Shown one piece after another: positions 8,845-12,498 of a DNA stretch of 19,354 nucleotides (position 1 is the first letter of the stretch; each line of letters opens with the position of its first letter). Both the position numbers and the translations under genes were made by a program. Under the pieces are notes generated by a model, which saw only the letters and a program-made list of their open reading frames with translations, was not told the DNA's origin and did not search any database. Origin of the DNA: a virus (lineage: Duplodnaviria > Heunggongvirae > Uroviricota > Caudoviricetes); the IMG/VR virus record IMGVR_UViG_2695420523_000020; one strand, 5' to 3'.

Positions 8845-9309
8845 CTATTTCTTCATGCGTTTTTGAGCTGCCAGCATATTTTCAAATGCTTCTTTGTAGA
8901 GTTCATTCTGACCTTTAAGTCTTTCGATTAGTTTTGCTTTTTCTGATTCGGGAAGGATATCAAAAAGATCTAGTAAATCAGCTTGTTGCTTGTTAACCAT
9001 CCGCCAACCTTCGCCTTCGAAACTTTCGTCATAAGTTCCTGAGGAACGGACGTAATTCATCAGATCAGCTAAATCAGGCCTCAACTCTTCAGGCTTAACT
9101 CTTAGTAATACAGCGAATTTTAATGCCGCATCAGTATTAAGTGGAGCCTTTCCGTTGAGATAATGGCTAACCGCAGATTGCGCCTCAAAACCCATTAGCT
9201 CGGCAGCAAGCTCCTGAGTCAGTTTGAGCTCTCTTTTTTTTGCATCCCAGATTGCGCGCAGACGTTGCGTAGCTTCCGGCGATGCGATTTCTTCGCGTTT
9301 TCTTCTCAT
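8845..9309 (-). CDS. racR: Prophage repressor, RacR/cI-like HTH protein (154 aa)
   Basis: Helix-turn-helix segment LTQELAAELMGFEAQSAVSHYLNGKAPLNTDAALKFAVLL. Divergently oriented to the cro-like ydaS across a ~100 bp operator region, the classic immunity layout. No S24 peptidase domain seen. Confidence 0.7.
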   Translation of the reverse strand: MRRKREEIASPEATQRLRAIWDAKKRELKLTQELAAELMGFEAQSAVSHYLNGKAPLNTDAALKFAVLLRVKPEELRPDLADLMNYVRSSGTYDESFEGEGWRMVNKQQADLLDLFDILPESEKAKLIERLKGQNELYKEAFENMLAAQKRMKK

Positions 9310-9320
9310 ACCACCATCTT

Positions 9321-9335
9321 ATGAATACAGTTCAT
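9321..9335. promoter_or_regulatory. Palindromic operator candidate in the racR/ydaS divergent region
   Basis: ATGAA-tacag-TTCAT inverted repeat located 12 nt upstream of the racR start codon, inside the 104-bp divergent intergenic region. Confidence 0.35.
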
Positions 9336-9413
9336 AATCTCAAACTGATATAGGTATTGATCATTTAAATTAGTATGGTTAATATTTTTGTGAGCATTAC
9401 TAAGGTGACCATT

Positions 9414-9689
9414 ATGACATTAGATGAATATTTGAAAAAAAATCGTGTACGACAGTCTTGTTTGGCCGCGCTGGCTGGTTGTTCGCAATCAATGATTAGC
9501 CTCGTTGCTACTGGACGTAGTCAGTTAAGCCCTGAAAAGGTATTGCGTATCGCAGAGGCTACGAATTTCGAGGTTACACCTCATGAACTCCGGCCTGATA
9601 TCTACCCTAATCCGACCGATGGTTTACCTGTTGGATGTAAGGCTAACACGCAAAATGCACAGGAGTTGATTCATGAAAATCAGGCATGA
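9414..9689 (+). CDS. ydaS: Cro-like HTH protein YdaS family (91 aa)
   Basis: ATG at 9414 with SD AAGGTGA. Translation MTLDEYLKKNRVRQSCLAALAGCSQSMISLVATGRSQLSPEKVLRIAEATN is a short HTH protein in the cro position. Confidence 0.7.
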   Translation: MTLDEYLKKNRVRQSCLAALAGCSQSMISLVATGRSQLSPEKVLRIAEATNFEVTPHELRPDIYPNPTDGLPVGCKANTQNAQELIHENQA

Positions 9690-10095
9690 GCACATCGAAT
9701 CAGTGTTGTTAGCCCTGGCAGCCGAAAAAGGGCAGGCGTGGGTCGCTAACGCAATTACTGAAGAATATCTGCGCCAGGGGGGCGGCGAATTGCCCCTGGT
9801 ACCAGGCAAGGACTGGAACAATCAGCAGAATATCTATCACCGTTGGTTGAAAGGTGAAACGAAAGCGCAAAGGGAAAAAATTCAGAAACTGATCCCTGCG
9901 GTTCTGGCAATTATTCCGCGCGAGCTGCGTCACCGACTCTGCATCTTCGATACCCTGGAACGCCGTGCATTACTGGCGGCGCAGGAAGCGTTGAGTACGG
10001 CAATTGATGCGCATGATGATGCAGTCCAGGCCGTTTACCGGAAAGCACATTTCAGCGGTGGTGGGTCGCCCGGTGATTCTGTCGTAGTGCATTGA
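9673..10095 (+). CDS. ydaT: YdaT-like protein (140 aa)
   Basis: Translation MKIRHEHIESVLLALAAEKGQAWVANAITEEYLRQGGGELPLVPGKDWNN... closely matches Rac YdaT as recalled. Overlaps the ydaS 3' end by 17 nt; SD caggag upstream. Confidence 0.8.
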   Translation: MKIRHEHIESVLLALAAEKGQAWVANAITEEYLRQGGGELPLVPGKDWNNQQNIYHRWLKGETKAQREKIQKLIPAVLAIIPRELRHRLCIFDTLERRALLAAQEALSTAIDAHDDAVQAVYRKAHFSGGGSPGDSVVVH

Positions 10096-10140
10096 TTGAA
10101 ATTAATCGTGCCGGATTGTTTTGTTCGGTATCAGTTAAAT

Positions 10141-10558
10141 GTAACGCTGCGAGCGTTACAAGGTGAAAACAAATGGCTTCAAACTGGATAAAGCTCGAGG
10201 TTATTACGCCGGATAAGCCGGAAATATTCAGGCTTGCTGAGATTCTGAATATTGATCCAGATGCCGCATTAGGGAAGGTTATTCGCTTCTGGGCATGGGC
10301 AGATCAACAAATGATAGACGGTAATGCAGATTGTAACGCTCGCGGCGTTACAAAAAGTGCAATAGATCGCATCACTTTTATGGCTGGTTTTGCTGATGCG
10401 TTAATTCAGGTTGGATGGCTGGTCGAAAATGACGTTGGGCTTTCTCTACCTAACTTTGAACGCCATAACGGAAAAAGCTCTAAAAAACGGGCGGTTACAA
10501 ACGAGCGAGTTACAAAAATACGTGAACTGAAACGAAAAGGTAACGCTGTCGGCGTTAC
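10141..10558. repeat. Three perfect copies of a 19-bp palindrome GTAACGC-N5-GCGTTAC: candidate origin iterons or regulator sites
   Basis: Copies at 10141-10159 (14 bp upstream of the ydaU SD), 10333-10351 and 10540-10558 (both inside the ydaU-like coding region), plus GTTACAAA direct repeats at 10493-10517. An acidic-linker-encoding stretch (EEEEEED) follows at ~10580-10605. Confidence 0.5.
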
Positions 10559-10961
10559 ACAAACGGATCAAAAAGCGTTACCAGAGGAAGAGGAAGAGGA
10601 AGATCTAAATACTGATCTCCCCCTAAATCCCCCTCGCCAAAAACGAGCGTCTAAAAAATTCGAGCCGGAGGCTATTGAGCTGCCCGATTGGTTGCCGGAA
10701 ACACTCTGGCATGAGTGGGTCCGGTTCAGACAGACATTGCGAAAACCGATTCGAACGGAGCAGGGCGCTAACGGGGCGATACGGGAACTGGAAAAATTCC
10801 GTCAGCAGGGTTTTACACCTGAGCAGGTGATTCGACACAGCATCGCCAATGAATACCAGGGCTTGTTCGCGCCGAAAGGTGTTCGACCTGAGACGTTACT
10901 CCGACAGGTTAACACCGTTTCGCTACCGGATAGTGCGATCCCGCCAGGCTTCAGGGGGTAA
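10173..10961 (+). CDS. Replication initiation protein, lambda O-like / YdaU family (262 aa)
   Basis: Sits directly upstream of the DnaC-like helicase loader. Acidic linker (PEEEEEEDLNTDLP) between N- and C-terminal domains as in O-type initiators. SD AAGGTGA precedes ATG 10173. Confidence 0.65.
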   Translation: MASNWIKLEVITPDKPEIFRLAEILNIDPDAALGKVIRFWAWADQQMIDGNADCNARGVTKSAIDRITFMAGFADALIQVGWLVENDVGLSLPNFERHNGKSSKKRAVTNERVTKIRELKRKGNAVGVTQTDQKALPEEEEEEDLNTDLPLNPPRQKRASKKFEPEAIELPDWLPETLWHEWVRFRQTLRKPIRTEQGANGAIRELEKFRQQGFTPEQVIRHSIANEYQGLFAPKGVRPETLLRQVNTVSLPDSAIPPGFRG

Positions 10962-10967
10962 CAGACC

Positions 10968-11714
10968 ATGAAAAATATTGCGACAGGCGGCGTTCTGGAG
11001 CGTATCCGCAGACTGACCCCACCACATGTAACCGCCCCATTCAGAACGGTTGCGGAGTGGCGTGAGTGGCAACTTGCTGAAGGACAGAAACGTTGCGAGG
11101 AGATCAACCGCCTGAATCGTCAGTTGCGGGTGGAAAAAATTCTGAATCGCTCTGGCATCCAGCCGTTGCACCGTAAATGCTCGTTTGCGAATTACCAGGT
11201 GCAGAACGACGGCCAGCGATACGCGTTAAGCCAGGCGAAATCCATCGCCGATGAACTGATGACCGGGTGTACAAATTTTGCGTTCAGCGGAAAACCTGGT
11301 ACCGGGAAGAATCACTTAGCGGCAGCTATCGGGAATCGCCTGCTGAAAGACGGTCAGACAGTGATTGTGGTTACCGTGGCTGATGTTATGAGCGCCCTGC
11401 ACGCCAGCTATGACGACGGGCAGTCAGGCGAAAAATTTTTGCGGGAGCTGTGCGAAGTGGATCTGCTGGTTCTTGATGAAATTGGCATTCAGCGCGAGAC
11501 GAAAAACGAGCAGGTGGTGCTGCATCAGATTGTTGATCGCCGGACAGCGTCGATGCGCAGCGTGGGGATGCTGACAAACCTGAACTATGAGGCCATGAAA
11601 ACATTGCTCGGTGAGCGGATTATGGATCGCATGACCATGAACGGCGGGCGATGGGTGAATTTTAACTGGGAGAGCTGGCGTCCGAATGTTGGTCAGCCAG
11701 GAATTGCGAAGTAA
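10968..11714 (+). CDS. DnaC-like helicase-loader AAA+ ATPase (248 aa)
   Basis: Walker [11 protein letters not shown] and Walker B LLVLDEIG. Overall similarity to DnaC and Rac YdaV as recalled. Confidence 0.85.
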
Positions 11715-11736
11715 TTTTTACCGGGAGAAAATTTTA

Positions 11737-12498
11737 ATGGAGACTGTTTTTGACGCACTGAAAGCAATGGGAAAAGCCACATCCATAGAACTTGCTGCGC
11801 GACTTGATATCAGTCGTGAAGAAGTGCTGAACGAACTATGGGAACTGAAAAAAGCTGGCTTCGTTGATAAAACCGCGTACACCTGGCGCGTGGCTGATAA
11901 CAATGTTCAGCAGGAACAGCCAGCGCAGGCAGAACTGCCGGAAGAAACCACCACAGCAACAGTAGTGAAAATTTCAGAGTGCGATTTAACCGCGACGATT
12001 GAGCAACGCGGACCACAAACGGCTGATGAGCTGGCTACATTGTTTGGTACCACATCACGCAAAGTGGCTTCAACGCTGGCAATGGCAATCAGCAAAGGTC
12101 GTCTGATTCGCGTAAATCAGGGCGGTAAATTTCGTTACTGCATACCGGGCGATAATTTACCAGCAGAGCCGAAAGCAGCATCGGTAGCGGAAACTGATGG
12201 TAAGGCCTTTCCTCAGCCCGCAGGTGTTGCATTACCAGTACAGGAGGCTGCAACACAGGAAGATATTAAAACAGAAACGGTGGCGGACATTGTGCAGTCG
12301 CTGCCATCGTTTACTGAAACGCGAGCGGATGACCTGGTTTTACCATCGCTGCATATGGCAAACCGCGAACTGCGTCGGGCGAAAAATCATGTCCAGAAGT
12401 GGGAGCGAGTCTGCGCCGCGCTGCGGGAGCTGAACAAGCACCGGGATATTGTTCGACAGATTTTCGATTCCTCCAGCCGTATTGTGTCGGAAAAGTGA
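11737..12498 (+). CDS. Hypothetical phage protein with N-terminal winged-helix-like segment (253 aa)
   Basis: ATG at 11737 with SD GGGAGA. N-terminus [43 protein letters not shown] resembles a wHTH; the same motif recurs as [27 protein letters not shown]. Occupies the Rac ydaW position. Confidence 0.55.

Follow-up and report, generated by a model that had tools for sequence, protein, structure and literature searches.

What does a temperate phage gain from three perfect copies of one palindrome placed around and inside a replication gene? The question arises in a 19,354-nucleotide stretch of viral DNA (the window; Caudoviricetes, IMG/VR record IMGVR_UViG_2695420523_000020), in which the 19-bp element GTAACGC-N5-GCGTTAC occurs once just before, and twice within, a gene for a 262-aa replication initiator. 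The motif exceeds chance, is under selection as DNA, goes with the N-terminal domain (N-domain) of the initiator and co-varies with it, and is set in a conserved architecture. The best reading is an origin of replication lying inside the initiator gene, that is, a lambda-like layout that would be built from non-homologous parts. Taken together, it is likely that the N-domain binds the palindromes and that the third palindrome with an adjoining all-purine tract forms the origin, and we are more confident of the binding sites than of the origin. An earlier inspection of the letters alone (the sequence-only reading) had proposed candidate origin iterons bound by the replication protein, a proposal that comparative evidence now supports through linkage to the N-domain, conservation at the DNA level, co-variation and a conserved element in the linker.

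The palindromes, which the sequence-only reading had placed at 10141, 10333 and 10540 and had called far beyond chance, are all present and perfect (Table 1). Each combines two 7-bp arms with a 5-bp spacer, and the arms are identical in all three copies. By chance 0.03 perfect copies would be expected in the window, and none of 200 dinucleotide shuffles reached three. A count over the whole 19,354 bp, one of the checks proposed with the original observation, revealed no copies beyond these three, even with two mismatches allowed. The half-site GCGTTAC is likewise concentrated, with 10 occurrences against 1.87 expected, 7 of them within 10141-10581; one of the seven is a lone copy at 10575-10581 that the sequence-only reading had not mentioned. 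The three dyads are spaced 192 and 207 bp apart, with lone half-sites besides. Palindrome 1, the upstream site, falls in the 77-bp gap that separates the stop of a ydaT-like gene (10095) from the initiator start (10173), 32 bp ahead of the start codon, and palindromes 2 and 3 (sites A and B) both encode xNAxxVT in the same frame. Direct repeats that had also been reported, at 10493-10517, do exist as GTTACAAA at 10494-10501 and 10509-10516 (with another copy at 10347-10354), but they are weak against chance, 2 of 200 shuffles reaching the same number, and add little to the case. The pair sits in the coding region of a conserved basic helix, its second copy is found in a subset of relatives only, and, judged from the relatives, both seem in part to be a side effect of the conserved KKRA(L/V)TN.RVT coding sequence.

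The protein encoded across sites A and B matches phrog_2509 ‘replication initiation protein’ (E 2e-88) and only PHROG families of this kind; searches against Pfam returned no family at E<=0.01 and no DUF1376 match. It had been described as O-like, which is apt for an initiator and functional analogue but not for its N-terminal half, which is no homologue of lambda O (no Pfam match). A profile of ten C-terminal domains retrieved 2ru8 (E 2.2e-7), 6aep (5.6e-7) and 9zbt (7.4e-7) from the Protein Data Bank (PDB). Matches to DnaT cover DnaT residues 92-179 only, leaving the DnaT N-terminal oligomerisation domain unmatched, and the tail VNT.S.PDS.IPPGFR is common to DnaT and the initiator C terminus. 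A profile of the N-domain had no match in the PDB. The AlphaFold model of the initiator, for which the alignment was built from database proteins, has a mean pLDDT of 66 and contains helices and a beta-hairpin; fold searches for the N-domain recovered weak, generic winged-helix similarity only. The N-domain looks winged-helix-like, a weak assignment, and we treat the N-domain as a putative origin-binding domain. Site A maps to a loop at residues 51-56 and site B to the linker at residues 122-140, which are the two internal low-confidence segments of the model and presumably can tolerate a sequence dictated by DNA.

Across relatives, the motif and the N-domain occur together. Scanning 2.9 million viral contigs with the DNA pattern only returned 120 loci, and an N-domain homologue (30-98% identity) was found at the motif in 52 of the 52 loci with at least two copies and in 51 of the 68 with one. 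These loci (L013-L132) were chosen on the motif, and unbiased claims rest on protein-retrieved sets. Protein-based retrieval, limited to one genome per species, yielded eight loci with an N-domain homologue (49-95% identity), from Shigella, Mixta, Erwinia, Rahnella, Pectobacterium, a Stieleria chromosome and two metagenome-assembled genomes (MAGs). The dyad is present in all eight, with identical arms and variable spacers, and in none of three loci that share only the C-terminal half of the initiator. Among 95 dereplicated loci, exact half-sites are confined, relative to the start codon, to -60 to -20, +140 to +200 and +320 to +440, with essentially none elsewhere between -400 and +900. Site B, at +337 to +441 from the start codon, is found in nearly all relatives and site A, at +148 to +165, in most, and the spacing between them (198-259 bp) has no 10.5-bp helical periodicity. 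The upstream site (-32 to -44, at most one mismatch) is, in the sequences compared, confined to a subgroup: 16 of 90 dereplicated relatives have it, 11 of these 16 without an upstream YdaT gene. Upstream flanks share nothing except the dyad, only 5 of 90 loci have a YdaT homologue upstream, and the downstream partners vary from DnaC-like loaders to DnaB-like helicases. This pattern supports the view that the motif tracks the initiator N-domain and no other gene.

The distribution of the N-domain is broad. Named phages that encode it include Stx phage TL-2011b, Salmonella epsilon15 and SPN1S, Xanthomonas CP2, and Pseudomonas PAN70 and phiPSA1, and it is also encoded by Vibrio and Ralstonia phages; the hosts range from Enterobacteria to Xanthomonas, Ralstonia, Vibrio and a Planctomycetota chromosome. 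The Planctomycetota occurrences, on the Stieleria magnilauensis chromosome (L010, NZ_CP036432) and in a Planctomycetota MAG (L009), are a long way from the Proteobacteria that the named phages infect. Their N-domains are ~53-55% identical and the purine tract is the same; both GTAACGC dyads are perfect in L010, and L009 has one perfect dyad and one with a single mismatch.

A natural swap within Escherichia coli separates the N-domain from its surroundings. The region is the immunity/replication module of a Rac-like lambdoid E. coli prophage and is 99% identical to the chromosome of strain 155. Compared with the Rac prophage of K-12, identity is 94% for YdaT, 96% for YdaV, 97% for YdaW and 85% for the initiator C terminus, but the N-domain of the K-12 initiator, YdaU, is DUF1376, and only residues 96-262 of the window initiator align to YdaU. 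DNA homology to K-12 Rac ends at 10094 and returns at 10600, and the swapped cassette therefore covers all three dyads together with the N-domain and the gap before the gene. No GTAACGC dyad occurs in K-12 Rac within three mismatches. At the linker position equivalent to site B, K-12 ydaU has its own repeats, five copies of GATGTTCAA plus an inverted TGTTCAAACA, which are candidate iterons of the K-12 Rac origin; along the K-12 locus (L213, 1972-2078, in ydaU) they appear as five AAGCAGATGTTCAA-like copies plus TGTTCAAACA/TGTTTGAACA inverted. Homology to K-12 Rac resumes inside the end of the purine tract. Because the tract and the CCCCCTAAATCCCCC (PLNPP) segment after it are common to initiators with unrelated N-domains, window position 10600 may be a recombination joint at which origin cassettes are shuffled.

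The neighbourhood of site B is conserved in its own right. Coding for an acidic linker had been noticed after the last palindrome, and PEEEEEED is indeed encoded at 10581-10604, directly past the lone half-site. Aligned relatives keep a fixed order after the N-domain: optional extra GTAACGC half-sites, site B, 12-24 bp, GCGTTACC, an all-purine tract, an A/T-rich stretch such as TATAAAAGATAAAA and, in about one third, C-runs. At the tract position, a 20-mer with 17 or more purines is present in 96 of 100 dereplicated relatives. Between +20 and +30 relative to the tract start, A+T averages 0.72 over the family, compared with a background of 0.455, and runs of five or more Cs occur in 33 of 96 loci (34%, window included) compared with 2% of control windows. 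The A/T-rich part of the window itself is ~15 bp only, with a local GC of 43-48%. Site B, the lone half-site and the purine tract together make up codons 123-144, between the end of the N-domain (~aa 120) and the DnaT-like domain (~aa 170). In distant members the tract reads AGAGAAGAGAAGAGAAGAGAAGA and encodes REEKRRE with AGA arginine codons, also in Xanthomonas, Ralstonia and Pseudomonas phages. AGA is expected to be rare in high-GC hosts such as these, and its use here again points to a DNA-level constraint.

Two further properties of this segment were considered. H-DNA was rejected as a general explanation; by inspection, the (GAGGAA)n tract of the window is no mirror repeat. GATC (Dam) sites at 10566, 10602 and 10614, three within 52 bp, flank the lone half-site and the purine tract, in a window where GATC is under-represented (58 against 73 expected); the first is partly conserved in relatives, as GGATC, GTATC or GTTTC.

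The strongest competing explanation, though we consider it rather improbable, is that the dyads are autoregulatory operators only, at which the initiator or another regulator would repress or roadblock the replication operon, with the origin elsewhere. Copy 1 is 13 bp upstream of the ribosome-binding region, a half-site adjoins the start codon in some relatives, and dimer-bound inverted repeats are operators for the Rep proteins of iteron plasmids. Set against these points, the upstream site is restricted to the 16 of 90 relatives noted above and the intragenic sites are near-universal; the + strand has no sigma-70-like promoter in 10096-10172, and a promoter overlapping the upstream dyad was rejected on this ground. 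The conserved partner of site B, a purine and A/T-rich linker tract, would be superfluous for an operator, and both K-12 Rac and lambda have repeats at the same linker position. A purely autoregulatory role would fit copy 1 but not the family-wide intragenic architecture. Of the operator alternative raised by the sequence-only reading, what survives is a possible second role for the upstream copy, which ~18% of relatives have.

Binding by another factor, whether the YdaT/CII-like protein, the repressor of the prophage or a protein of the host (DnaA, for example), is far less probable. The region does belong to an immunity and replication operon, and a repeat resembling the YdaT operator precedes copy 1 by 32 bp. 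The operator published for YdaT, TTGATT-N6-AATCAA, is however unrelated in sequence (PMC9986795). K-12 Rac has a YdaT 94% identical to that of the window, yet lacks the palindrome, and few loci of the family have YdaT upstream at all (5 of 90). DnaA boxes were sought and rejected: 9300-11800 contains none, even with one mismatch allowed, and they are not enriched at any position in 100 relatives. The hosts, moreover, span Enterobacteria to a Planctomycetota chromosome. As for YdaT itself, the window contains 7 matches to its operator within two mismatches, against 1.74 expected. One, TTGATTCATGAAAATCAG (9666-9683, one mismatch), lies at the ydaS end/ydaT start, the position of the published OM site (PMC9986795); a second, TTGATTGAAATTAATCGT (10092-10109, two mismatches), overlaps the ydaT stop and is the repeat before palindrome 1. 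Because one YdaT tetramer can hold a pair of operators (PMC9986795), a 426-bp loop between these two sites flanking the ydaT-like gene is conceivable.

Recognition of the dyads by the N-domain predicts that sites and protein vary as a pair, and subfamilies of the initiator bear this out. CP2 and PAN70 retain GTAACGC. The epsilon15/phiPSA1 group has GTCCGC-N7-GCGGAC at +65 and +344, with the half-site GCGGACC before the purine tract; the Ralstonia Raharianne group has GTAGACG-N6-CGTCTAC at +153 and +368, with GCGTCTACC or GCGACTACC before the tract; further contigs have GTGGCGC-N5-GCGCCAC, with GCGCCACC before the tract; and Vibrio phages have GTCAC-N9-GTGAC. Within one locus all sites change together, the tract-adjoining half-site included, and the layout is kept. 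Such joint change of separate sites with the protein encoded across them fits the prediction of a cognate protein–DNA pair. In the epsilon15/phiPSA1 subfamily (L220-L299, L217) the first intragenic dyad is at +64/+65 rather than at +148 to +160; across the sequences compared, the number of intragenic sites is conserved there and the position of the first is not.

Co-variation also bears on the idea that the palindromes act as mRNA hairpins in stability, attenuation or translational control, which we regard as very unlikely. Each copy can fold into an 8-10-bp stem (-10 to -11.9 kcal/mol, z about -3.3 to -3.7), the arm changes between subfamilies are complementary, and copy 3 with a T-run scores as terminator-like on the minus strand. 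Within a subfamily, however, the arms do not vary, whether by G-U pairs or by compensatory changes; lone half-sites, which have no partner to pair with, are conserved, as are half-sites in direct repeat, and both follow the palindromes when these change; and the total length of ~19 bp is retained, which fits a dimeric DNA binder. A terminator role was rejected: copy 3, on the minus strand, is the sole terminator-like hit, and shuffled sequences yield as much. That hit consists of palindrome 3 followed by CTTTTCGTTT (10540-10568, minus strand), and an A-run precedes site B in many relatives.

Codon usage distinguishes selection on DNA from selection on the peptide. For this comparison we used 44 protein-retrieved sequences, dereplicated at 97%. 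At site A the arm codons are AAC in 44/44, GTT in 44/44 and GGT in 42/43, with a third-position entropy of 0 at AAC and GTT and 0.16 at GGT; most other conserved degenerate codons have 0.8-2.0 bits. The first arm codon varies among TGT, GGT and AGT (C/G/S) with GT kept, and the fifth alternates between GGC and AGC (G/S). In the lone half-site the leucine codon is TTA in 38/38, fixed because the half-site forces the codon. In 46 loci site B encodes xNAxxVT, in another 15 VTxxAL, and the reading frame is open in every case. In these alignments the motif is conserved as DNA, independent of codon choice and reading frame, and the locus is a clear example of codon choice giving way to a DNA signal within a gene, with the same 14 specified bases kept in two frames and AGA codons retained across the family. 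That a repeated conserved peptide, N-A-x-x-V-T, produces the DNA pattern incidentally can practically be set aside. Sites A and B do encode it in the same frame, and residues G50, N and T60 are conserved. However, copy 1 encodes no protein, synonymous positions stay fixed where arm-flanking amino acids vary, the alternative VTxxAL frame is in use at site B, and the encoded segments are the low-confidence loop and linker of the model.

A few near-identical prophage copies have a disrupted reading frame, through a length difference of one base. The A-run at window 10484-10489, in a KKR-coding stretch, is 6 long in the window, 7 in L157 and L071 and 5 in L163, and in all three a change in or beside the run closes the initiator frame before or at site B. 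Because the frame is closed there, these loci are probably decayed copies or sequencing errors.

Table 1 Features of the window discussed in the text, in order of position (+, - and. denote strand)
Feature	Position	Strand	Description
HTH repressor	8845-9309	-	Pfam search
YdaS-like	9375-9689	+	Pfam search
YdaT/CII-like	9673-10095	+	Pfam search
Palindrome 1 (upstream site)	10141-10159	.	GTAACGCTGCGAGCGTTAC, perfect GTAACGC-N5-GCGTTAC match
Initiator gene, 262 aa	10173-10961	+	N-domain aa 1 to ~120, linker, DnaT-like C-terminal domain aa ~170-262
Palindrome 2 (site A)	10333-10351	.	GTAACGCTCGCGGCGTTAC, initiator codons 54-60 (CNARGVT)
Two GTTACAAA half-site-like repeats	10494-10516	+	Weak, possibly auxiliary
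Palindrome 3 (site B)	10540-10558	.	GTAACGCTGTCGGCGTTAC, codons 123-129 (GNAVGVT), linker after N-domain
Lone half-site GCGTTACC	10575-10582	+	Adjoins purine tract; 7-nt part at 10575-10581
All-purine tract AGAGGAAGAGGAAGAGGAAGA	10583-10603	+	~21 nt; encodes acidic linker; candidate unwinding or loading element
Short A/T-rich stretch TCTAAATACTGATCT, then two C5 runs (CCCCCTAAATCCCCC)	10604-10633	+	
DnaC-like helicase loader (YdaV)	10968-11714	+	IstB/DnaA ATPase Pfam matches; NCBIfam PRK12377 1e-153, DnaC 1e-90

The module also encodes a DUF1627 protein. From the comparisons above we infer binding by the initiator and its dimer stoichiometry, opening of the DNA at the purine tract, recruitment of the helicase, and autoregulation, which could combine as follows. 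Each 19-bp dyad would be bound by a dimer of the initiator N-domain. Site B, its flanking half-sites and the lone GCGTTACC would place the initiator beside the purine-only, A/T-rich tract at 10583-10618, and this tract would open. The DnaT-like C-terminal domain would then hold the single strand and bring DnaB through the DnaC-like YdaV loader. Site A, ~200 bp upstream within the gene, and the subgroup-specific site before the start codon would serve as auxiliary anchors, and the upstream site may let the initiator limit its own expression.

More tentatively, and with considerable doubt, these proteins might form a distinct phage initiator class, in which a programmable, sequence-specific origin reader is fused to a DnaT-type single-stranded DNA (ssDNA) filament domain. 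The near-invariant (GAGAA)n/(GAGGAA)n tract would be the single-strand loading pad, recognised by the filament domain, the restart-primosome route to DnaB/DnaC would be borrowed without PriA, and the half-site variants GTAACGC, GTCCGC, GTAGACG, GTGGCGC and GTCAC would constitute a natural recognition code.

Our searches of the literature on oriJ, YdaU, the motif, the purine tract and the epsilon15 origin found no published description, and the initiator family is widespread and, as far as we found, uncharacterised. If the N-domain does read an origin at site B, a replication origin would be located for a large temperate-phage family for which we found neither annotation nor description, and which includes Salmonella epsilon15 and SPN1S, Stx phage TL-2011b, Rac-like E. 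coli prophages and phages of Xanthomonas, Ralstonia, Pseudomonas and Vibrio. Origin recognition would then be the function of a domain that has no Pfam family. The co-changing site sets would represent several natural initiator-origin pairs, of use for deriving a recognition code and for building compatible or orthogonal replicons, and the DnaT-like effector domain would provide an experimental handle on how DnaT-type domains recruit DnaB/DnaC.

Among the closest known systems, K-12 Rac (oriJ, ydaU-ydaV) has the same gene order and has repeats in the same ydaU linker position, but differs in its DUF1376 N-domain, in the repeats themselves (GATGTTCAA, TGTTCAAACA) and in the replacement of the cassette at 10095-10599. 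The Rep proteins of iteron plasmids (pSC101 RepA, F RepE, R6K pi) are winged-helix-type initiators, a fold to which the N-domain here has a weak similarity; they use dimer-bound palindromes together with single half-sites near an unwinding element, as the locus here may do, and can autoregulate through an inverted repeat at the 5' end of the gene. They are unlike the initiator described here in that neither sequence nor fold gives a significant match, in that the sites here are embedded in coding sequence, and in that no promoter was found overlapping the upstream dyad (+ strand, 10096-10172).

In lambda, the A/T-rich segment of the origin is strand-asymmetric, and the specificity cassette is exchangeable between lambdoid phages. 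The lambda origin lies inside the O gene, between the N-terminal DNA-binding and C-terminal loader-recruiting halves, and consists of 19-bp inverted-repeat sites followed by the A/T-rich segment (PMC7466680). Both systems have sites in the coding sequence of the initiator itself, at the junction of its N- and C-terminal domains, and both use a 19-bp dyad geometry. The N-domain here, in contrast, has no detectable homology to that of lambda O (no Pfam match), two or three dyads ~200 bp apart with lone half-sites replace the four to six tandem iterons of lambda, and the conserved neighbour is an all-purine (GAGGAA)n or (GAGAA)n tract. The partners also differ, with a DnaT-like C-terminal domain and a DnaC-type loader here and lambda P in lambda.

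The C-terminal half of the initiator leads instead to E. coli DnaT (primosomal protein I), with which it shares a homologous domain (2ru8) and a tail. The DnaT C-terminal domain forms ssDNA filaments in the preprimosome, and DnaT has been proposed to recruit DnaB/DnaC (PMC13377028). DnaT, however, is brought to abandoned forks by PriA/PriB and lacks a domain for sequence-specific DNA binding, whereas the initiator carries a different N-domain, fused to the DnaT-like part, that appears from the comparative evidence to supply sequence-specific recognition of an origin.
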